Assembly: GCF_947568905.1 (NCBI RefSeq)
Contig: NC_079164.1
Coordinates: 9,238,001-9,302,000, forward strand
Direction of reading: 5' to 3'
Source of the DNA: Ostrea edulis
Lineage: Eukaryota
DNA length: 64,000 bases
Program-made: the position numbers and the translations under genes
Part shown: piece by piece, positions 28,546 through 64,000 of the stretch
Numbering within the stretch: position 1 is the first letter of the stretch
How the letters are laid out: each line of letters begins with the position of its first letter
The notes under the pieces: model-generated
Told to the model about the DNA's origin: nothing
Seen by the model: the letters and a program-made list of their open reading frames with translations, nothing else
Database searches by the model: none

Positions 28546-30207
28546 TTATAGATATTGGATTTTCTTCACTTTAGCAGTGCCTAACTCAGCCACAAAGAGG
28601 TTGTCTCTGATGTCCACACATAAACCCCATGGACTGAGTAAATCACAGTGAATGTAACGGAGGAACTGTCCGTCCTGATCTAGGATGTGGATACGGTGTT
28701 TGTAACAGTCTGCTGTCAGGATGTGACTCTGGCTGTCTGTAGTGATGCCGAATGGTTTAAATGATTGCTCGGTATTAGAGGGATGACCAGTGTATCTAAA
28801 TCGGAGTTTTCCTGACTGATTGACCACCACTACTGCACTAGCTCTATAGTCAGCCACACAGATATCCAGGTTCTTGTTCTCACTAAGGTGTTTATAGTAA
28901 CCACCAGATGAGTAGAGAGGACGACCCTGATCATCAAACTGAATGCTTTGTTTCTCTGTGGAGCCGGAGTAACGCACGACTTTGAATTGTTTTCCATCAT
29001 CACTGTACATGGTAACCAGGAGATCGTTATCCGCGGTACAGCAGACATAGAGAGGTCTCCACCCCTGTAGTGTGATCACAGTCTGTATCTGTTTATTCTT
29101 AATTAGGTTTATATTGTTACTATTGTCAGTATAAACAAGATCTCCGTCCCGTGTCACTGCTATGTCCCCTGGATAGTCCCCTGACTTGGTTTGTATTGAT
29201 GTCAGTAGTTTACTCTGGAGGTTGAGCAGCTTCATGGTTTCGTTATTCCCGCATGTCCAGACTTGATCTTCACTCAGACAGCTAACACTGTGTAGATATT
29301 GATACCCAGTGTCTATGGTGGCGGTGACGCGCGGGTCATCAAGCAGTGGTTTGACTGGAGGAGACGATACAGCTTCTGCTGACTTCATTGTGTCGCCTTG
29401 TTCTGTGTTAATGGATAATGGCGACAGAGAACCAAACATTTCACGGAGCTTTTCTGTGTTTATTTTCTGAGGAGATAAACTCGGTAATGTGACTCGGACT
29501 TTAGGAGGTAATTGTCGGAACTCGCCATTCCTAGATTTGTAAGTAGACGTTAAAGAGACGTCCTTGGTGTTCAGTATTTTCTTCAGGTCCTCAATGATCT
29601 TTCTAAGTTCTGTAATTCTCTGTGTAATTTCATCTGTGTTTTTATCTAAGGCAGCCATATGTTTATTTTTCATCTCCTGAATGTCGGATTTCCGCTGGTT
29701 GACAATGGCGGTGACCTCCCGGTGTAAGACTTCTCCTTGTTGGTCGGCAGCTGTTGTCAGTTTCCCGTAATTCGTTTCTAACTCGGATTTCTCTGTTTGG
29801 ACATCGGACGCCATTTCTTCATATCGAGGACAAATTCTGCTCTCTAGTTCCTCTAAATCTTTTTGTAAACTTTCTGTTTTAGCGCTGAATTTTTCCAGAA
29901 CATCACATAAATTGTGCCCTCTATGTTTTTTTGAGACACAGGTAGAACAGACAGGAACGTCACATTCCTCGCAGTAAAGTTCGCTTTGTTTGTCGGCGTG
30001 TGTCGGACATTTTGGGTAGACTTTGGGGGCAGAACTTTTCTCTATGAACGGTATGACTCGGTGTTTTCTAGACGAATCCAAGAGATGTTTACCTACACAG
30101 TTAGTACAGAGATTTATATTACAAAGTTCACAGTGACTCTGTAGCGGGGCAGTTTCACAGGAGTCGCACAGTAGGACTTCCTGCGCACTGCGCCGGGGGT
30201 GCAGCAT
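28546..30207 (-). CDS. RING-less TRIM-like protein: two B-boxes, coiled coil, C-terminal NHL-like beta-propeller (bivalve-expanded family)
   Basis: Single long ORF, likely ATG at 30207 (MLHPRRSAQ). CDSC...HCELCNINLCTNCVGKH and CPTH...YCEECDVPVCSTC...H B-boxes; heptad region; PFGITTD, PWGLCVD propeller repeats. Confidence 0.88.
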   Translation of the reverse strand: MLHPRRSAQEVLLCDSCETAPLQSHCELCNINLCTNCVGKHLLDSSRKHRVIPFIEKSSAPKVYPKCPTHADKQSELYCEECDVPVCSTCVSKKHRGHNLCDVLEKFSAKTESLQKDLEELESRICPRYEEMASDVQTEKSELETNYGKLTTAADQQGEVLHREVTAIVNQRKSDIQEMKNKHMAALDKNTDEITQRITELRKIIEDLKKILNTKDVSLTSTYKSRNGEFRQLPPKVRVTLPSLSPQKINTEKLREMFGSLSPLSINTEQGDTMKSAEAVSSPPVKPLLDDPRVTATIDTGYQYLHSVSCLSEDQVWTCGNNETMKLLNLQSKLLTSIQTKSGDYPGDIAVTRDGDLVYTDNSNNINLIKNKQIQTVITLQGWRPLYVCCTADNDLLVTMYSDDGKQFKVVRYSGSTEKQSIQFDDQGRPLYSSGGYYKHLSENKNLDICVADYRASAVVVVNQSGKLRFRYTGHPSNTEQSFKPFGITTDSQSHILTADCYKHRIHILDQDGQFLRYIHCDLLSPWGLCVDIRDNLFVAELGTAKVKKIQYL

Positions 30208-30969
30208 TTCTGGTGTCGGGTTCACATTAGTAGTTCACTGTCAATAAAAAGACGAATATTTAATTTTCAGTGTTAGTTTACCATTGCAGAATATAGATGT
30301 GGATTTCAATAAACATGTTACATGTAACCGGGGAAACAAACAATTTACAGTTAGAATTGTACGTCAGCTTTATCTTCTATTATATTCTATTCCAGTAAAA
30401 AAAAAAATAAGCAATTCAACAAAACTATCTTATCAATGTGTTCAATCGTTCAAACTTCATAGCTTGTACATTTATAACACTTCGGTGACACTGAAATGTG
30501 TATATAATTTTGTCTCGCCTCTAAATCCAAAATGGCCTCCGTGATATTTCGACCTTCAGTGTAGTCCCGTGCTTTACCTGTGTGTGGTGTGATCGGTTCT
30601 ATATATACATCATATCTACACCAGCTAGTAGACCTGTAGACGCTCCTGTTTGAATAGATTTAAAGTTCATATTGACCCAGTTTGTAATATAGCAGTGCTG
30701 TTCTCATTCAGATATAAATATACTTCGTATAAATCTCAATGTATACCTGAACAAATCATAACAGATCGTCCGAGAGACAAAACCATGGTAGGATTCAATG
30801 ATACGAAAAACAATCAAGAGATCCACTTCACAGTAAAGGCCAAAAGCATTCAAAACGAATAAGGACTGATGGGGCCGCGTACAGAAAAGTTCGTAATTCA
30901 GTGAACAATATAAAAAAAAAAAAAAACCAACATGCGATATCCAATTATGATGACAGTATTGAAACCTAC

Positions 30970-55426: not shown

Positions 55427-55908
55427 GATCTCCTCTATGAACGTTAAGTTGTATATACTTCATACACAGTATATACCTCAAGATTTTTCAGCAGCAACTT
55501 TCGTATGGACATGTTTAAATAGTTATCTCCCTTTGAACAGATACTCGCCTTCAATATTGCGTGCATACTCGTTGGCAGTCAAAGGAAAATAGTCTGTTTG
55601 ATCCTTAAGGCACTACAGCTGTGAGAACAGCACTCCCTAATTTAACTTTACAAATGGAATGCTATTTTAGAATATTCAATCTTCCAGGACTACATAAATG
55701 TTAGAAAAGTAATTCGATGTAAATGTGCATATAAAAGAGTATGGTCTCTGAACCAGTCTCTGAAACGGTTAAAAATCAATCGAGAGGGAAAAAATAAACA
55801 CTTTTGAATTAAATGAAAAATTCCAAAACCTTTATTTCAGTAATTAGTTTGTTTGAAGATGTTGGCAAGATGAATTATGCATAGAGATTGAAGTCAGAAA
55901 AGCTCCTT

Positions 55909-56100
55909 AGTAGTATAACGCGTCCCGATAGGGAGGTCAACTGAGTGCACTTTTTATGCAAATGAGGTCAAGTAAGGGCGTTTTTGATTGGTCAAGCGGT
56001 GTTGGGGTCAACGGAGTGCACTAGGACGGGGTCAACCCCAGCAGGGGTTGTAGAGCGGGTGAATAGACTGGCCTATGGCCGCTGGTCTATGATGCGGTAC
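55909..56100 (+). promoter_or_regulatory. Putative terminal inverted repeat / replication origin of the Polinton
   Basis: Starts AGTAGT; contains ATGCAAAT (55956-55963), five GGTCAA and two GAGTGCACT. The right TIR is not in the window, so the extent is unknown. Confidence 0.6.
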
Positions 56101-56337
56101 TTTCGCTTTGAGTTCCTGGAATGAGTTCCTGCTATTTTTCTGAAAATCGGTATAAAATCCAGTGAAATCCTGTGTATTAAATCTAAAAGAATAACAGTGT
56201 ATTAAATCTAAAAGAATAACACAAGGTTTTAAGTTGACATGTTTATTAAAGAACAATGGTACAAGCATAGAACAATGCAAAACAATTCAATAAGCATAAA
56301 AACAGTTCAATAAGCATAACAGTTCAAGCACAGTCCA

Positions 56338-57255
56338 TTACTTTCTGCTGAGTTTCTTCTTCTTTTTTGGCCGTTCTTCAGTAGGTGCAGGTGGATTCCA
56401 CATCTCTAACGGTGTGTATTCTCTCTTCACAGGGGGTTTTGAGCCAGGTACGGGTCCAATCATCGCATCTATCTCCGCTTGTTCTTCTGGACACTCACTA
56501 ATCCAGTGTCCTATTTTTCCGCATTTGAAGCAAGGATCCTTTTGTTTGGTTTTCTTGCTGGTCTGTTGAGAATCTGCCGACCACGATTTCTTACTGGTCT
56601 GCGGATAATCTGTTTTCTGTGGGCAATCCGGCGACCAATGTCCTGTTTCTCCACACGTGTAGCACGGGTTAGCAGTGTAATCTGGAGTGTATTCCTTCCT
56701 AGGTTTTTTAGAAGTCAGGTCTTCCAGCTTCTTCAGTAGGATTGTGGTATGATTTCCAATCTCATTACTCAGCACATTAATGCGGTTAACGATCCCGTCG
56801 AGTGTCGTGGTAATGATGGCGAAATCGGTCCTGCTCATGGGGGAATCTTCTCCGCCGAAGGGGGGTTTATCGTATAAGCCCATCTCCAGTCCCGTAGCGT
56901 CCTGTGAATCGGGAAAATAGAAGCCTAATCCCGGGTCTGTCGGATTCTGGCTAGGGAGGTAATCCGAGGTCTGGGCCATCTTCACTTGTCGAGCAACGTG
57001 GTCTGAAGGCGTGAGATTGAAGCTCGTGGTCTGGTTCGAGGTCTGGGCCATCTTCTTCTCTTCTCTTCTTCTTTGAGCAACGTAGTCTGGAGACGTGAGC
57101 AAGAAGTTCGAGGTCTTCCCCAGTTCAGTCTTCTGATCGTCACTCTTAGCTTTCTTCAGTTCAATGTAGTCTTTCTGTGGCCCCATCTCCTTCTGTACCA
57201 GCTGATCTATTTTCTTCTGAGCTTTGTCCACAAATTCTAGTTGTTTCTGAGCCAT
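56338..57255 (-). CDS. Viral protein with two CCHC zinc knuckles, coiled coil and C-terminal basic NLS (305 aa)
   Basis: CYTCGETGHWSPDC and CFKCGKIGHWISEC; RPKKKKKLSRK; TATAAAA at 57314-57308 upstream and AATAAA (minus) near 56242-56247. Confidence 0.85.
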   Translation of the reverse strand: MAQKQLEFVDKAQKKIDQLVQKEMGPQKDYIELKKAKSDDQKTELGKTSNFLLTSPDYVAQRRREEKKMAQTSNQTTSFNLTPSDHVARQVKMAQTSDYLPSQNPTDPGLGFYFPDSQDATGLEMGLYDKPPFGGEDSPMSRTDFAIITTTLDGIVNRINVLSNEIGNHTTILLKKLEDLTSKKPRKEYTPDYTANPCYTCGETGHWSPDCPQKTDYPQTSKKSWSADSQQTSKKTKQKDPCFKCGKIGHWISECPEEQAEIDAMIGPVPGSKPPVKREYTPLEMWNPPAPTEERPKKKKKLSRK

Positions 57256-57540
57256 GTCTTCTGGAAGGTGATTGAAGATCGAATGAGGACTGACACTGGG
57301 GCTCCGCTTTTATAGCCAGCAAAATGTCTAGACTATTCTGTCTCGTGAGGGGCACGTGGGGAGCACGTGGTTGCATCATCTTTTTCTGGAAAAACCGGTT
57401 TCAGCTAGAACATCGCGCGACCAGCGCGTGCTAGTGCACTAATTGAACTTGAAAAGCCGGTTTCTCGCAACCAGCGCGTGCTAGTGCCCATTGGTACACA
57501 TTGACTTTAGTGGAATGGAACTTATATTGGTGTTTAAAGT

Positions 57541-57556
57541 AGCCCTAAAAAGGGCT
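57541..57556 (-). terminator. Histone-type 3' stem-loop (AGCCCT-TTTT-AGGGCT-AC) downstream of the Rep-like ORF
   Basis: Perfect 6-bp stem, 4-nt U loop, 19 nt after the TAA stop. Confidence 0.6.
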
Positions 57557-57575
57557 GTGCATGAAGTTTTTATTT

Positions 57576-58082
57576 TTAAAAATGGCCGGCTTCATACGCA
57601 GGTTCTTCTATATACACGTGTAAGTCATGATCTTCGGATATAATGTGTTGTACTAATTGTCGAGCTCTTCTCCCGGGGAAACGTATCTCTTCGACGGTTT
57701 CCCACATCCAGTGTGCATCCCAAAACAATACCCATACACTTCTCCGGTAACGTGGTTTCTCCAGTCGAATAAATCCCGATACTTTTTGAGTGCCGTTCAA
57801 TAACGTGTAAAACTGGTAAATCATGTACTGTATGAGGGGGGAATTTTTCAGGTACATGTCACTTAAACGCAGGTAAATATCCTCCACTGTTTCATGTGAC
57901 CGCAATACATAGTCAAAACACCAATTTTTAGATCGGCCCCAGCGTAATCGATGGCGACATCTCTGTACTAAATTGGCCCAGATCTCCATCTCGTCTACAT
58001 AATCTTCTACTATGGTTAAATTCTCCACTGGTTGTATTCCCTGGCCGCGGCGTCTCGCTCTTAAAATTCTCCGTGTATCCAT
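57576..58082 (-). CDS. Protein with degenerate CRESS-DNA virus Rep (HUH endonuclease)-like domain (168 aa)
   Basis: KNWCF (motif I-like) and IQYMIYQ...GTQKVSGFIRLEK......VWVLFWDAHW align by eye to nanovirus/circovirus Rep (IKYMVYQ...GTRHVQGYVEMK......MRGFFPGAHL). Confidence 0.6.
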   Translation of the reverse strand: MDTRRILRARRRGQGIQPVENLTIVEDYVDEMEIWANLVQRCRHRLRWGRSKNWCFDYVLRSHETVEDIYLRLSDMYLKNSPLIQYMIYQFYTLLNGTQKVSGFIRLEKPRYRRSVWVLFWDAHWMWETVEEIRFPGRRARQLVQHIISEDHDLHVYIEEPAYEAGHF

Positions 58083-58117
58083 GACTGAAGGTCAGACAAG
58101 AATGACTGTAGAAAAAC

Positions 58118-58197
58118 CAGCTGACGTACAGGTGCTTGATCACGTGGTGCAGGTGTTTGATCACGTGATGCATAACCTTTACCTATAAATACAGGTG
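58118..58197. promoter_or_regulatory. Bidirectional promoter between the Rep-like gene and the Bcl-2-like cluster
   Basis: E-boxes at 58118, 58129, 58141, 58150, 58162, 58192; TGACGT at 58122; TATAAATA at 58184-58191. Confidence 0.6.
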
Positions 58198-58221
58198 TTT
58201 TCTGAACGTTCGTTATTTACT

Positions 58222-58554
58222 ATGGGGGGCAGTGCTACTACGAGAATAAATGGATATAGTTATGTACTACAATGTATGAACGTGGCCTTACATAATCCTC
58301 ACATTCAAAATGCTCGTCAATTTGTACAACAGATGTCACCGGAGGTCAGAAATGTACATAGTTTTCAACGGATTGCTGATTCATTAGCGGAGAATACCAA
58401 TACGGGACGTTTACTCATGATTTATTTGTATGCTGAGGAATTGAAACAGAATCTTCCAGACCAGATGAGTGACATTGATCGGATCTTACGCGATTGTCTA
58501 CAAAAAGGATTCGTGGAACTGATTCGTATGAAAGGAATGGCTGCCCTGTTATAA
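58222..58554 (+). CDS. Viral Bcl-2-like protein, paralog 1 (110 aa)
   Basis: SFQRIADSLAENTNTGRLLMIYLYAEEL resembles BH1 (F..V..ELF....NWGRIV..F.FG..L); FVELIRMKGMAAL sits at the BH2 position. Confidence 0.65.
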   Translation: MGGSATTRINGYSYVLQCMNVALHNPHIQNARQFVQQMSPEVRNVHSFQRIADSLAENTNTGRLLMIYLYAEELKQNLPDQMSDIDRILRDCLQKGFVELIRMKGMAALL

Positions 58555-58591
58555 AACAAGAACGTTTTAGAATTTTTTCATTTTGATCATC

Positions 58592-58945
58592 ATGGCTGAA
58601 TTGACCAACAACGTTCTTACCGCTGTATTACAGCATTTCGAGGACTACAAAGAATCGGTGAACAACGCTCGTAGCGCTGCATTACGGTGTATCAAGGACT
58701 GGAAAGAAAAACAGCCGTTGAGATATAAATTCGCCATGAAGTTGTTGATCTTTTGGGAATTTCCTATGACCTTATATGAATATTCCAGCGTTTGCAAGCA
58801 TATAGCCGACAACCTGAACAGAGAGTCTGGATTGATCATGATTTATACCATGGACCAAGAATTTAGACGACGGGAACCTGAGAAGACTGGGGCGATTGTA
58901 GCGATTACCGATCACTGGCTGGAAAAGGTGTATAAAAAAACCTAA
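58592..58945 (+). CDS. Bcl-2-fold-like paralog 2 (117 aa)
   Basis: FPMTLYEY...GLIMIYTMDQEFRRREPEKTGAI..I...WLEKVYK is shared with paralogs 1, 3 and 4. Confidence 0.7.
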   Translation: MAELTNNVLTAVLQHFEDYKESVNNARSAALRCIKDWKEKQPLRYKFAMKLLIFWEFPMTLYEYSSVCKHIADNLNRESGLIMIYTMDQEFRRREPEKTGAIVAITDHWLEKVYKKT

Positions 58946-58973
58946 CCGTTTTCTTTTCCTTTATTCCTGGAGG

Positions 58974-59321
58974 ATGGCCAGCAGTGACAACATCGCAGAA
59001 AAAGCGCATAACCATGCATTAGAATGGGTGGAGAAAATGCAAGACGATACGGTGTTTCAAGCTGTTAAAAATTATCTGATAGCGGGGGTGTTTCCAATGA
59101 CTCTGGACGAATATACAGATCTACGGAACCATGTGTACATCAATCTCTATAACGATGCGGGGTTGATGTTAATTTATGTCGCGGGGGAGGAATTCAAGAA
59201 ACGCATGCCTGAAAAAACCGCCGAGATTGAAAGTATCACCAAGGACTGGCTTCGAGAAGTATACATAAAGTGTGAAGAACTTAATTCATTTCATTTATTC
59301 CCGGAGGATGGCCAGCAGTGA
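58974..59321 (+). CDS. Bcl-2-fold-like paralog 3 (115 aa)
   Basis: FPMTLDEY...GLMLIYVAGEEFKKRMPEKTAEIESITKDWLREVYIK. Confidence 0.7.
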   Translation: MASSDNIAEKAHNHALEWVEKMQDDTVFQAVKNYLIAGVFPMTLDEYTDLRNHVYINLYNDAGLMLIYVAGEEFKKRMPEKTAEIESITKDWLREVYIKCEELNSFHLFPEDGQQ

Positions 59322-59613
59322 CCACATCACAGAGAAAGCGATAGTTTATGTATTGGATTATCTCACAGACATTCATTCTGGGCAGTTTGAATTTGTGTTA
59401 CACTATATGCGAGAAGAATTATTTCCCATCAGCTTAAAGGACTATCCATGTCTCTGTCAGTATTTGATCGAGAACCGGATCACCCCGCAAGCCTTAGTAC
59501 TGATTCATTTAATGGGCCAGGAATTGAAACGAATTCGACCCACAGACAGAGCAGAAATCGAGAAAATCAGACTACGATGTCTTCGAGAGATGTACGTCAA
59601 GTTAAACGTGTGA
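59308..59613 (+). CDS. Bcl-2-fold-like paralog 4 (101 aa)
   Basis: Same MASSD N-terminus and 5' nucleotide context as paralog 3; FPISLKDY...ALVLIHLMGQELKRIRP...EIEKI...CLREMYVK. Confidence 0.7.
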   Translation: MASSDHITEKAIVYVLDYLTDIHSGQFEFVLHYMREELFPISLKDYPCLCQYLIENRITPQALVLIHLMGQELKRIRPTDRAEIEKIRLRCLREMYVKLNV

Positions 59614-59795
59614 CTTTTAATCTGGATCAAAATGAAGTGCATCTGTTACCCGAAGAAGACCGGACAAGTATCTGGATGACTGTAGCTGCTGATCGATATC
59701 GATTTCAACGCAGGATTCGAGAAATGGAAAAAATGTTGGACCCTATTTTAAAAAGACATGTGCATTGGTGTTGTGTGTGGGAGTTATGTATTTGA
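59577..59795 (+). CDS. DP71L/ICP34.5/GADD34-type PP1 regulatory subunit (eIF2-alpha dephosphorylation adaptor), 72 aa
   Basis: KRVTF (RVxF) followed by R..IW...AADRYRFQRRIREMEKMLDPIL, matching the PPP1R15 C-terminal motif (W...A.DR.RF.RRI...E..L...L). Confidence 0.88.
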   Translation: MSSRDVRQVKRVTFNLDQNEVHLLPEEDRTSIWMTVAADRYRFQRRIREMEKMLDPILKRHVHWCCVWELCI

Positions 59796-59808
59796 AATAT
59801 GTGACATG

Positions 59809-59814
59809 AATAAA
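59809..59814 (+). terminator. Poly(A) signal closing the five-gene plus-strand cluster
   Basis: AATAAA 13 nt after the DP71L-like stop, followed by GT-rich sequence. Confidence 0.65.
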
Positions 59815-60351
59815 ATTGTTTACACGAAAGCTGTGTTTGGTTGAGTCTCTCAGAGAAGGGTTTATTTGTTGAGGAATCCAGAAAATCCTAAAGGTAGAGT
59901 GAAAATCGAATCAAATAAGGTGTTTTCTATCGAATAGACCTTATGAGATGTTGTTAGGGATGTACATGGTCGAGAAATAAATTTTTAAAGAGGGGGTGAA
60001 GAAACATTGAACCTCGACTCGACCTCTTTAACCGCTGTTTCTTTGAAAACTATGCGACGTAGCAAAATAAAAATAAGTTTAACGCATTCGCCGTCTCAGA
60101 ATCTATCAGATTAAATCTACCTTGCACAGATATCGAATGTCTAGAAAAAGACAATGAGAAAAAACTCTCTACTCGAAAGCACAAATCCGCCATTTTGACG
60201 GCCACCATCTTGGCTTCGTCTCCGAAGCGAGGGATGTTTTCGAGGAGGTCCGCGCTTTCCTGATATATACCGGCGCACTCGCCAGTTCGCTTCACTGGTG
60301 ATCCAGCACAGTTGTAGAAGATTTTTGAAGATTATTTAAGAAGAAAGAAGA

Positions 60352-61140
60352 ATGTCTGCAAGAAGAGACCCGCTCTACAATTTCCAGACCTTGCCTGGAT
60401 TCCGGTACCGGCTCCTAGTGGTGGCTGAGGAACGGGTAGGGGAGAATTGGGTCGTGCGTTCTGAGAACGACCTGAGCACCTTCTCCCCTTTCGACCAGAG
60501 TGGGGTCCGTGAGATCATCTGCCGGGTGCGGGCCGAGTATGAAGGGAGGGCACCCCGCCGCCGCACCGCTCGAATCTCCACGGCCACGAGACCGCGCCGA
60601 CGGGCCCCACAGCCACCCTCACCACCACCACCTTACTCCCCGGTGACGCCTACAACACCACCACCAGCGATCCCATCGGCACCAGTGGAATACAGCCCGG
60701 TGCCGATGAGCGACTCACCAGCGTCACCGGTGGAGTATTCACCGCGGTCACCGTCCCCCGCACCACCTCCCAGTCCAGCCCAGAGTCCGTCGCTGTTGGT
60801 GGCAGCCACGTCATCACCACCGAGACCAGCAGCCCCTGCAAGACCCCCACCACCTACCATCCGGTTTGCAGGGAGGACTCCACCACCGAGACCAACCCAC
60901 GCACCGGTGGCAACTCATCCCCCGAGGAACCACCCTATGACTGTCCCTGGCTGGGCAGATAGGGCGGTTCCCATCTGGTTTAAGTGTCCTGTCTGCTGGC
61001 AAGACAGGGTACACTCTGGAATTACGTGTAGGGGATGTGGGCAGCGCCCAGCTTGCTGCTCGTGCGTGGAAGAGTTACAGGAGCGGCGACACACCCGGGG
61101 ACGGTGCCCGTTATGCCGGTTTACCGGAAGCAGGGAATGA
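60352..61140 (+). CDS. Proline-rich protein with C-terminal C4C4 RING-like finger (putative viral E3 ligase), 262 aa
   Basis: C-x2-C-x10-C-x2-C-x5-C-x2-C-x13-C-x2-C; PPPY motif; TATATA near 60264 upstream. Confidence 0.8.
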   Translation: MSARRDPLYNFQTLPGFRYRLLVVAEERVGENWVVRSENDLSTFSPFDQSGVREIICRVRAEYEGRAPRRRTARISTATRPRRRAPQPPSPPPPYSPVTPTTPPPAIPSAPVEYSPVPMSDSPASPVEYSPRSPSPAPPPSPAQSPSLLVAATSSPPRPAAPARPPPPTIRFAGRTPPPRPTHAPVATHPPRNHPMTVPGWADRAVPIWFKCPVCWQDRVHSGITCRGCGQRPACCSCVEELQERRHTRGRCPLCRFTGSRE

Positions 61141-61162
61141 AAGTCGGTCCTTAGGACCAAAC

Positions 61163-61182
61163 GGCCCTTTTCAGGGCCACCA
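61163..61182 (+). terminator. Histone mRNA-type 3' stem-loop (CCAAAC-GGCCCT-TTTC-AGGGCC-ACCA) with downstream GAAAAGA
   Basis: Exact match to the metazoan replication-dependent histone stem-loop consensus, 22 nt after the RING-gene stop. Confidence 0.85.
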
Positions 61183-61290
61183 ACTTTTTTGAAAAGACAC
61201 TTTTTATGGCAAAAATCAAGAAACACACAAGTTTGTTTTAAAAAAGTTTTTATTAACACAAGTAATAGCTAGAATAAAGCTATAATAAAG

Positions 61291-61473
61291 TTACATTTTC
61301 TTGACAATGTACACATGTTTATGATACTGATAAGCAAAGTCACAAATCCATTGTCTATAATGAGTCCAATTGCCTCCGGCTAATCCATGAGGTTTCACCG
61401 TTAAACATTGTTGTACAATAGCATCCACCCAAGGTAGAGATAATACATCTCCTCGTAGATCCGTCACCGCCAT
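61291..61473 (-). CDS. Small hypothetical viral protein (60 aa)
   Basis: CCACCATGG Kozak start overlapping the upstream gene's stop; ends just before the minus-strand AATAAA (61253-61248). Confidence 0.5.
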   Translation of the reverse strand: MAVTDLRGDVLSLPWVDAIVQQCLTVKPHGLAGGNWTHYRQWICDFAYQYHKHVYIVKKM

Positions 61474-61865
61474 GGTGGTTGACAGGTCTCACAGGTACAC
61501 GTTGACCAGGGTTCTTGACTGTAAGGACAATGTTGAAACACCCGGGGATCAAACTTTCTCTGAGTCCAGCGCTCTCTAAACTCCTGACAGATCTCACAGG
61601 TACAGTCCTTATGTGCTATTTCTTCTTCAGGGGTGATGGTACAATGCTGCGGACACTTACACTCTAGCCAGGGTTCTCTAGTGTGACCACAACATTTATA
61701 GACAAAGGGATAAAACGTCAGCTCTGCCAATCTCTCTATCCACTTCTGTTTGGCCAGGATGTTTTCTTTTTTATAATGAAAACAGCCACAAGTGCTCCAA
61801 GGTCCTCGGCAATACCCACACACTAGTACATCTTTCTCATCATCCGCGTACCGTTCAAACGACAT
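61464..61865 (-). CDS. Cys-rich viral protein with three C-x(3-5)-[GE]PW-x2-C-x-C repeats (133 aa), putative Zn-binding
   Basis: CGYCRGPWSTCGC, CCGHTREPWLECKC, CPYSQEPWSTCTC; TATATAAATA on the minus strand near 61893-61902. Confidence 0.7.
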   Translation of the reverse strand: MSFERYADDEKDVLVCGYCRGPWSTCGCFHYKKENILAKQKWIERLAELTFYPFVYKCCGHTREPWLECKCPQHCTITPEEEIAHKDCTCEICQEFRERWTQRKFDPRVFQHCPYSQEPWSTCTCETCQPPWR

Positions 61866-62040
61866 GATTGAGAAAAATGGTAACAAGTGACCTATTTATA
61901 TAGTGTTTTTTGATGAGTCATCAACATGACGTCAGCCATCTGAGGTAGGGGATGTTTTCGAGGACGTCCGCGCTCTCGCCTTTTTAAACGAGCGCAACGT
62001 CAAAAATTGGGCATTCCGATTTTTTAAAGGAACCAGAACC

Positions 62041-62337
62041 ATGAGCCGTAGAGTAGGACCAGACCCTACAGTGAATGATTATTGTATCAAATGGGAGGAG
62101 GATTGGGAGCAAGAGATTGCCCCGCCGGCCTCACGGGAGGCTCTTCCCCCACCGCCCATGAGCCAGGATCTGCCCCCGCCAGAGGAAAACTGGGACGCAG
62201 AGTTAGAAGTGGTGCAACGGCCTCCGGGGAGATTGTTTTTTAAACACGGCTGGTTGCCCGTTTTTGTGTTTGACCACGAGCAACCCCCGGAGGAGCAGAA
62301 AAAGAAGAGAAGAAAGAAGAAGAAGAACAGACAGTGA
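62041..62337 (+). CDS. Small acidic/Pro-rich viral protein with C-terminal basic NLS (98 aa)
   Basis: Good ACCATGA start, EEDWEQE and EENWDAE motifs, KKKRRKKKK; shares its upstream element and 3' stem-loop with the RING gene. Confidence 0.65.
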   Translation: MSRRVGPDPTVNDYCIKWEEDWEQEIAPPASREALPPPPMSQDLPPPEENWDAELEVVQRPPGRLFFKHGWLPVFVFDHEQPPEEQKKKRRKKKKNRQ

Positions 62338-62434
62338 GGGGGACCGAGAAGAAAAGAAGAAGAAGAGAAGGAGAAGAAGGAGAAGAGAGAAGAAGAAGAA
62401 GAGAAAAGACCAAGAACAGAGAGAGAAAGAAAAC

Positions 62435-62455
62435 AGCCCTTTTCAGGGCTACCCA
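62435..62455 (+). terminator. Histone mRNA-type 3' stem-loop (AAAC-AGCCCT-TTTC-AGGGCT-ACCCA) with downstream GAAAAGA
   Basis: 6-bp stem with A-U closing pair, TTTC loop, ACCCA tail. Confidence 0.8.
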
Positions 62456-62557
62456 TTCTTTTTGAAAAGACATGGTTGATTACAATGACAAGAAAATTTT
62501 TTTTTTTTTTCCAACGTTTTATTAAACTCCAACTATGAACAATAACAATAACATAGT

Positions 62558-63055
62558 TTACAATACATTCAGTCTTTGACATTGACAAGTTTGTCCTTGA
62601 TGGGTTCTCGGTTTACGGAAGGTCTCTTTAAACCAATCCGCCACAAAACGATCGCGTTGTAAGGCTGTGCCTTTCCAGGGAAGTAACCATTCTCGTACGG
62701 TGCTTCTATGGCGATGGCGTTGATGTAAAAAATACACACAGTATTGTCCACAGACATCCGTATTCAAATCTTGATAACAATGGGTGTTATGAATCCAAGT
62801 CTCTCCGTGGCGTTGAATAAAGTCTTGGATGTCTTTATGGCTGGGAGGTAATCCGTAAGAATCAAAATATTCGACGGTAGGGCTACTCAAATACAAACAG
62901 ACCCAATGCGCTCCAGGGCGATCGTGAGGGTCTGTATTCACCACGATGGCTTTGTGATGAGGTAACAGCTCAGGTATGACATCTCGAGGATACACACCTG
63001 CAAACGCCGGTCCTAAATCTCGTTGTAAAACATCTCTCAATTGCTGAGTATCCAT
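62558..63055 (-). CDS. Adenain-like (C5 family) cysteine protease, Polinton maturation protease
   Basis: GVYPRD, IVVNTDPHDRPGAHWVCLY (catalytic His), EYFDSYG (Asp), YQDLNTDVCGQYC (Gln/Cys). Confidence 0.92.
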   Translation of the reverse strand: MDTQQLRDVLQRDLGPAFAGVYPRDVIPELLPHHKAIVVNTDPHDRPGAHWVCLYLSSPTVEYFDSYGLPPSHKDIQDFIQRHGETWIHNTHCYQDLNTDVCGQYCVYFLHQRHRHRSTVREWLLPWKGTALQRDRFVADWFKETFRKPRTHQGQTCQCQRLNVL

Positions 63056-63062
63056 CTCTCTC

Positions 63063-64000
63063 TTAGTAATCGATACTGACTTCTCGTTGTTTGTTGATTT
63101 CTAGCAGATTGTCGAACACGGCATACACCACACAGTTTAAGGTCCTGGCTACGTTGGCGGCAAATTGCACTTCCACTCTCAAGTTCCCCGTCTGTATGAG
63201 ATGAAATTTATCCGTCTGGGCTTCTTGATCTTTCGTGAAATCCACACACCAGAGGGTGTAACCGTTTTTATACTCTTCCAGGGTAATGTCCGGAGCCCAG
63301 TCCTGACCTAATTTTCCCAAGCCTTTGTACAGACTCAAATACGATCTCAGGTACTGATCGTCGGTGAAATTAGGTTCCAAAGGTCGGGTTTCCATCATTT
63401 CTCCATTGATACTGATTTCTAATTTCTTGACTCTCTCATTTTGGAAATGAAAGGGGTTTCTGGTATTATCCCCATTAAAAGCCGCATTGTCCACAAAGCC
63501 CAACACGATCAGTTTAGGCATCTGTCCTTGAAACAGATGATCGGTGATTTTAGATTGGGTGCCACTAGGAATGGTGAAGGTTTTCACTTCCACTCGTCTC
63601 AATGGATATTTCGCCGTTTGAGTACTCAGTTGCTGATTGATGAGATTAATGATACTCGGCACAGGTTTGACTTTCCTCACCCACAAGATCATACTTTGAA
63701 TGGCCACTTTCCCACTACTCCCGGCAGCGGTCATCATGTAGAACTGGGGTCGAGCGCGATTGAATCGGAGACGGACATCCAAGCCATTAGGGAGACATTT
63801 CTCTTGCTCAAACAAATCCAGATGTAATCGATCCATCAACACGATCTCCTTACTGTCTGTAATCTTCTCGTGACGTTTTCTCAACCCTACATTCTTGGAA
63901 TCATCCGGATACTCGGGAGTCGGAATGACGGCCGCGATGCTGATTTTGTTATTCACTACTGGAAATTCCACAGGAGTTTGAGCCAGATCTTCTAATTTGA
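63063..64000 (-). CDS. Polinton/adintovirus major capsid protein (double jelly-roll), C-terminal part; frame open to the window edge
   Basis: [16 protein letters not shown]...[30 protein letters not shown]...[20 protein letters not shown] are Polinton MCP-type motifs; adjacent to the protease gene. Confidence 0.85.

Follow-up and report, generated by a model that had tools for sequence, protein, structure and literature searches.

The accessory end of a Polinton/Maverick in the flat oyster Ostrea edulis, a probable product of a recently active family

The window analysed here is a 64,000-nt stretch of the genome of the flat oyster Ostrea edulis (C1:9238001-9302000), and its positions 55909-64000 are the left part of a Polinton/Maverick element (Eupolintoviridae-like). 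The element measures 19,732 bp; the window holds its left 8 kb, and 11,640 nt lie beyond. Its left end starts with AGTAGT at 55909, preceded by CTCCTT (55903..55908), as had been claimed by an earlier reading of the letters without database searches (hereafter the sequence-only reading). That reading had also predicted a right terminal inverted repeat (TIR) ending in ACTACT and a CTCCTT duplication, and both were located in neighbouring DNA, 11.6 kb past the window end. TIRs of 345-356 bp with (AGT)2//(ACT)2 ends lie within the range of 100-1500 bp that defines Polintons/Mavericks, and CTCCTT provides the 6-bp target-site duplication (TSD) typical of the group. The two TIRs of the window copy differ by 7 mismatches and 11 gap columns, the first difference being at nt 159. 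A chimeric join at ~55908 had been named as a possible flaw. Searching the genome with a junction probe gave 348 candidates, 40 of which were scored, and the 39 matches from outside the window all began at most 7 nt from the terminus. This indicated that 55909 is a true element end and excluded such a join. The features found are the following (ORF, open reading frame; pN/pS, ratio of nonsynonymous to synonymous polymorphism).

55903..55908 (+): left copy of the target-site duplication CTCCTT, 6 bp, a direct duplication at both ends
55909..56264: left TIR, 356 bp, starting with AGTAGT and containing the polyA signal (56242) that serves the first ORF
56338..57255 (-): protein of 305 aa containing two zinc knuckles of the CCHC type (Pfam E 3e-15; pN/pS 0.44)
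57576..58082 (-): 168-aa protein, weakly resembling the Rep nuclease domain of CRESS viruses (Viral_Rep E 0.007-0.068, below cut-off)
58222..58554 (+): B1, 110 aa, with a BH1-like NTGR motif and possibly a minimal Bcl-2 fold
58592..58945 (+): B2, 117 aa
58974..59321 (+): B3, 115 aa (hhalign 93% to the B1 clade)
59308..59613 (+): B4, 101 aa (hhalign 88% to the B1 clade)
59448..59795 (+): DP71L/GADD34-like PP1 adaptor with a KRVTF motif, a 115-aa frame overlapping B4
59809..59814 (+): single AATAAA signal, common to B1-B4 and the PP1 ORF
60352..61140 (+): proline-rich protein, 262 aa, with a PPPY motif and a C-terminal RING-like finger
61464..61865 (-): cysteine-rich ORF, 133 aa, no family match
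62041..62337 (+): acidic/basic ORF, 98 aa, strongly constrained (pN/pS 0.07), no family match
62558..63055 (-): adenain-like maturation protease, 165 aa (Pfam E 2.9e-4; PDB 1avp E 1.4e-4)
63063..64000 (-): 3' part of the putative major capsid gene, so named from position and size

Past the window, whose end lies 460 nt short of the start of the putative major capsid gene, the order is a basic 230-aa ORF, a putative minor capsid (331 aa), ORFs of 150 and 95 aa, the integrase, ORFs of 255, 109 and 302 aa, an A32 ATPase, an IAP, a broken pPolB, the right TIR and CTCCTT. All core genes stand on one strand, and the ORF located between both putative capsid genes is basic and glycine-rich. The downstream pPolB, integrase and ATPase that had been predicted were thus present (PF03175, E 1e-57; rve, E 1e-10, plus a chromo domain; Pox_A32, E 5e-7), and the IAP, with BIR and RING domains, is situated between pPolB and ATPase. 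Among the downstream proteins there was also a weak match to a DUF559 (VSR-like) insert (E 0.031). The claim of protease and capsid genes stood for the protease. The putative capsids had no usable Pfam or PHROG match, nor did the major one have any in PDB, against which it alone was also compared; we name both from their position, size, gene order and constraint.

The window copy had been called intact-looking, which did not hold for its polymerase. Its pPolB is split over two frames; compared with four sibling copies it has deletions of 44 and 303 bp, and with them it has lost motif C, so that this copy is predicted to be unable to make its own polymerase. Sequencing error was considered as the source of the break and rejected, given the size of the lesions and the lack of a homopolymer beside the first.

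We fetched 25 further TIR-bounded elements: 23 siblings, 1 degraded relative and 1 non-coding element. Gene matches among the siblings were mostly 97-100%, with some swapped or diverged genes (B4, IAP, first ORF), and the putative major capsid was 466-467 aa long, as compared with 465 aa in the window copy. An intact pPolB of 1319-1320 aa with motif C was found in 22 of the 23, and all six core frames were full length in 18. One ORF (L011:6046-6375) was polymorphic, encoding 152 aa in 12/23 siblings and 108-109 aa in 10/23. An exact 24-mer of B1 occurred 84 times in the genome, giving a copy number of ~84, and two terminal patterns had 41 and 37 genome matches. At the 53 of these 84 loci that lay outside known pairs, bodies were mostly 96-100% and TIRs 78-93% identical to the window. 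The 32 TIR pairs spanned 19.7-20.4 kb, with a median of 20,098 bp, and a perfect TSD flanked 23 of 24 full copies. Copies could stand close together: two are 3.6 kb apart at C4:68.18-68.23 Mb, and on C7 (0.23-0.35 Mb) two copies and one palindrome lie in a span of 120 kb, one of these copies being without a matching TSD. The degraded relative (C4:93147777-93171758; L084-L086) is 24 kb long and ~80-86% identical, with the same terminus and three B paralogues; it also holds what we take to be a macro-domain-like fragment.

Mean pairwise divergence was 0.5-0.8%. With B4 and IAP left out of the count, the window copy had 3 private differences in 15,342 columns, 22 siblings had 4-34 and one had 101. 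Of the earlier claims, Polinton identity, both ends, the CTCCTT duplication and recent activity were borne out. Linkage (r2, CpG sites excluded) was 0.58 for sites up to 20 bp apart and fell to 0.065 at distances of 3-10 kb, versus 0.044 in shuffled data. Nine haplotypes segregate in the outer 70 nt of the TIRs; over these 70 nt both TIRs of a copy were identical in 24/24 copies versus 5.1 expected, a score reached in 0 of 10,000 shuffles. Further in, within-copy concordance dropped to 19/24 and then 16/24, and inner TIRs differed in 14/24. These patterns are best read as fresh insertions that would have been drawn repeatedly from a recombining, extrachromosomally replicating pool, with ends evened from the tip inward.

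Counting distinct variants, pN/pS was 0.07-0.29 from the 98-aa ORF through pPolB, including 0.16 and 0.14 for the putative major and minor capsids, 0.15 for the protease and 0.10 for the ATPase, and it was 0.34 for the IAP. The other accessory genes had values of 0.34-0.74, most of them being sampled in more, and more diverged, copies. The core genes are under purifying selection. That the putative capsid, protease and ATPase genes are constrained would imply that recent ancestors of the copies passed through particles. The earlier view of a virus-like element rather than a passive transposon fits the family, which looks virus-like in its constraint, near-free recombination and matched ends; the window copy itself has the broken pPolB.

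A second kind of element carries the same ends. The non-coding element among the 25 fetched (C10:25422465-25439822; L067/L068) is a gene-less palindrome of 17,358 bp with family TIRs, a direct 6-bp TSD and arms 99.4% alike; host repeats lie inside, and the tested arm gave no Polinton protein match. Two probes from the palindrome interior each matched nine loci with 99-100% identity, in every case as two inverted copies, and no unpaired 99% source copy was found. Seven of the eight further passengers had both termini and a TSD (17,355, 17,357, 17,381, 17,472, 17,370, 16,578 and 14,631 bp); for the remaining one, on C3, one terminus was not found within the 1 kb fetched. Eight passengers displayed six terminal types, which matched the types of the full-length helpers over at least 24 nt. 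Such swapping of ends between passenger and helper points to co-replication. Six of the eight measured passengers were 17.36-17.47 kb long, that is, ~86% of the helper median, and this size match suggests packaging.

Ten accessory ORFs precede the protease. The sequence-only reading had seen a row of about eleven, each with its own TATA box and 3' signal: the row was confirmed and the count was not, and a TATAWA lies within 130 nt upstream in 6 of the 10 (~1.4 expected), the others lacking one, as in the case of the PP1 ORF, which overlaps B4 in a different frame. The separate 3' signals were not borne out, since the four paralogues and the PP1 ORF have the one AATAAA at 59809 in common. The 305-aa zinc-knuckle protein presumably binds nucleic acid. 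The 168-aa ORF, which diverges from B1 around a common TATA region, apparently lacks the Rep catalytic residues, as far as we can judge from the motifs, and is possibly an inactivated CRESS Rep nuclease domain; PDB and ESM Atlas lent no support for it. As for the predicted RING protein, the signal was weak (zf-RING_2 E 9.5e-4, below cut-off, with Gln at the usual His position), and it may well be an E3 ligase. This ORF is annotated in Ostrea edulis as "uncharacterized" proteins, 54 of them in one cluster; more generally, dozens of element ORFs figure in the annotation as oyster genes, which can mislead studies of expression. An LxCxE motif was absent from every accessory ORF, and Pfam found no GasderminX or PLA2X in the window or downstream proteins.

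B1-B4 are mutually paralogous. Over 77 loci the array read B1-B2-B3-B4 in 55, lacked B2 in 16 and B3 in 5, and was truncated in 1; taken by gene, B2 was missing from 17/77 loci. The joint left by the B2 deletion recurred in 3 of 4 sequencing runs. B4 exists as two deeply diverged alleles (61/77 and 15/77 loci), the rarer one being found also in the degraded relative. Among 1.84 billion protein representatives the B family had 32 relatives, and the 9 for which records were consulted come from ENA, JGI or Logan. A metagenome search with B1 gave 2 weak matches, and the one opened was bacterial. The earlier assignment of four Bcl-2-like proteins was right as to the four paralogues, but their Bcl-2 identity is weak. 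PF00452 matched B1 with E 0.0066 (17.4 bits versus a cut-off of 31.4), the other three paralogues had no match, and a Bcl-2 signal was seen in 3 of 33 family members. As controls we used host Bcl-2 genes in which a single open frame spans the complete Pfam domain (C10:33.68 Mb, L140 and L141; C5:26.61 Mb, L142), two of which stand 2.6 kb apart. Against these, hhalign gave probabilities of 10-17%, with NTGR aligned to NWGR, and the family profile beat all 300 shuffles for 2 of 3 host exons. ESM Atlas held no usable match for B1. No hydrophobic C-terminal tail, the membrane anchor of Bcl-2 proteins, was seen in B1-B4; some viral Bcl-2 members also lack it. We consider a Bcl-2 fold somewhat more likely than not, and true anti-apoptotic groove binding less likely than not.

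The PP1 ORF combines an RVxF motif with the downstream W/DR-RF-RR helix of PPP1R15/DP71L adaptors and matched PF10488 (E 1.9e-5, just under the cut-off), DP71L of African swine fever virus (ASFV; 5e-5) and PPP1R15B (1e-4). DP71L recruits PP1 to avoid translation shut-off (PMC5346070, in the portion consulted). The sequence-only reading had ascribed shut-off to this adaptor; its family undoes shut-off, so the expected effect is the reverse, and the protein would probably keep translation on via eIF2-alpha dephosphorylation. In a relative (P0016, also P0030; ENA contig), a B-like domain is fused in frame to the PP1-binding domain. We considered whether ribosomes might pass from B4 to the PP1 ORF by programmed -1 frameshifting and rejected this: a slippery-like heptamer stands before the B4 stop in 54 loci, but the other allele has none, and the RNA downstream is less stably folded than its shuffled versions (-8.5 versus -11.5 kcal/mol).

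At least half of the words of the stretch were present in 19 of 24 listed sequencing runs, some labelled oyster metagenome, and element variants recurred across independent runs. One raw-read sample contained 116 loose read ends with mixed flanks at 55909. An extrachromosomal excess in run X24 was considered and found unneeded, as 84 integrated copies account for the depth.

The best explanation overall, to which we give a probability of about 0.7, is that a Polinton family active in the flat oyster inserted a copy here very recently, of which positions 55909-64000 are part of the accessory end. An integrated copy would leave the chromosome as linear DNA. pPolB would replicate this molecule from either end, using a protein primer and displacing a strand. 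Such strands could fold via their TIRs into panhandles, whereby both ends become alike progressively from the tip; genomes replicating together would recombine, and the integrase would place the products at new sites. Broken copies and gene-less palindromes would need only TIRs, being served in trans. The accessory genes would gain time for the element within its host cell: the PP1 adaptor should keep translation on, and the IAP and the B paralogues should block apoptosis or bind immune adaptors.

Several observations weigh against this explanation. Constraint is weak on B3 (pN/pS 0.58), B4 (0.74) and the PP1 domain (0.68); B2-B4 alone scored no better than shuffles against host Bcl-2, and a PDB sequence search with B profiles retrieved no Bcl-2. 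The putative capsid protein found no relative in IMG/VR. In one other sample, raw-read depth was 100-185x over most of the element versus ~1.4-1.5x in unique flank, a depth for which ~80 integrated copies suffice, and no molecule-end pile-up appeared in the raw reads (one run, 6% sampling). RNA run X20 (small, share 0.05) had two contigs of <200 bp on the element, which carry no weight as expression. Part of the mosaic could stem from gene conversion among integrated copies, and common descent from one recent founder explains the equal passenger lengths just as well as packaging does.

Some of these points would suit a purely intracellular, self-synthesising transposon that spreads in the germline without particles and owes its mosaic to ectopic gene conversion: read depth needs no free DNA, the viral database yielded no match, and the one TSD-less copy, 60-80 kb from two family elements, suggests rearrangement between integrated copies. 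We nevertheless consider this unlikely, because capsid, protease and ATPase are constrained as strongly as pPolB and integrase, lengths are tightly kept near 20.1 kb, and conversion among dispersed copies leaves unexplained why the two outer ends of a copy agree in every case, with inner TIRs differing in 14/24. Quite improbable is a virophage-like defender, woken by a large DNA virus such as ostreid herpesvirus 1 (OsHV-1) and using its replication compartment, with accessory genes prolonging the life of the co-infected cell. Such a role has been proposed for vertebrate Mavericks (PMC8097293, sections consulted), and the many intact copies would agree with it, but the TATA boxes and AATAAA signals indicate host RNA polymerase II, and the element has its own host-control gene set, as expected of an autonomous virus. 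That palindromes and TIR mismatches are assembly artefacts, from chimeric long reads or collapsed haplotypes, is hardly credible and already largely refuted. Fold-back reads are a known long-read artefact, and a full arm-to-arm comparison covered just 1 of the 9 palindromes; however, 8 of 9 have a direct 6-bp TSD, similar lengths, separate loci and unlike flanks, which a fold-back would have mirrored, and variants of the element recur in independent runs.

A further step beyond the recently active family is a circulating, integrating polintovirus with its own gene-less snap-back satellite, which would swap helper ends and have its length set by capsid filling. We hold this to be tentative and rather unlikely. 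If true, it would amount to genomic evidence that an animal Polinton has a particle stage, its counter-defence consisting of an accordion of Bcl-2-like genes, as in poxviruses, and a Bcl-2/PP1 module resembling ICP34.5.

Elsewhere in the window, an open frame of 562 codons with a B-box-like cysteine pattern at its start (28549-30234, -) is probably a host TRIM-like gene, and broken endonuclease/reverse transcriptase frames (1387-3267, -) are presumably LINE-like. Two tandem arrays are strand-skewed, at 39046-42441 (20-nt unit, 169 copies) and 16121-17579 (16-nt unit, 92 copies).

With adintoviruses, since renamed Eupolintoviridae (PMC12451622), the oyster element has in common pPolB, rve integrase, FtsK/A32 ATPase, adenain and TIRs. 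Carriage of Bcl-2 and IAP is already published, homologues of both being reported in some adintoviruses (Starrett 2021, PMC8502044), and the text of Fig. S2 there has an IAP label near bivalve entries. Three features of the oyster element have no counterpart in the portions of that paper covered: a tandem array of three to four divergent paralogues whose alleles are swapped, a DP71L-like PP1 adaptor, and the palindromic passengers. No report of these three features in Polintons was found in the literature, which was partially covered, and the Bcl2 examples of PMC8502044 may bear on their novelty; the parts covered of PMC6431247, PMC3014272, PMC10294476 and 10.1101/2024.01.15.575659 held nothing on them. 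VSR inserts in mollusc pPolBs are described in the available part of Jeong 2023 (10.1101/2023.08.22.554363).

ASFV DP71L, PPP1R15A-B and ICP34.5 of herpes simplex virus all show an RVxF motif followed by a W..A.DR.RF.RRI helix, as does the oyster adaptor, which differs in overlapping a Bcl-2-like gene in another frame or, in a relative, being fused to one. A DP71L-like adaptor would extend to Polintons a strategy known from herpes- and asfarviruses. Polar matching of ends is known from the repair of adenovirus inverted terminal repeats. Defective snap-back viral genomes are gene-less palindromes that keep only replication ends; unlike them, the oyster passengers are germline-integrated, TSD-flanked and filled with host repeat DNA, with interference and packaging putative. 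Repbase lists non-autonomous Polintons, and the passenger type may not be new.

Another close comparison is with vertebrate Mavericks, as described in the sections covered of Barreat and Katzourakis 2021 (PMC8097293), who take purifying selection and constrained size as arguments for virions. Alike are the (AGT)2//(ACT)2 ends, the 6-bp TSD, an accessory region at the flank, purifying selection and the modules integrase-minor capsid-PW-major capsid-protease and pPolB-ATPase, and the oyster gene order fits that paper, a Beta adintovirus or group-I Maverick being a candidate assignment. The oyster element differs in its mollusc host, in the IAP between pPolB and ATPase and in its one-strand core genes, an arrangement also seen in Xenopus tropicalis. 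Particles of Mavericks have not been observed to date (PMC8097293), and the packaging prediction drawn from passenger size makes it testable whether animal Polintons are viruses with particles or transposons only. The ~84 young oyster copies, checked for intactness in 23 only, compare with a maximum of 38 intact copies for vertebrate Mavericks. The value of this farmed-species case, with its dozens of near-identical young copies and population-genetic traces of what would be extrachromosomal replication, lies less in the gene list than in those family-level traces and the passenger.

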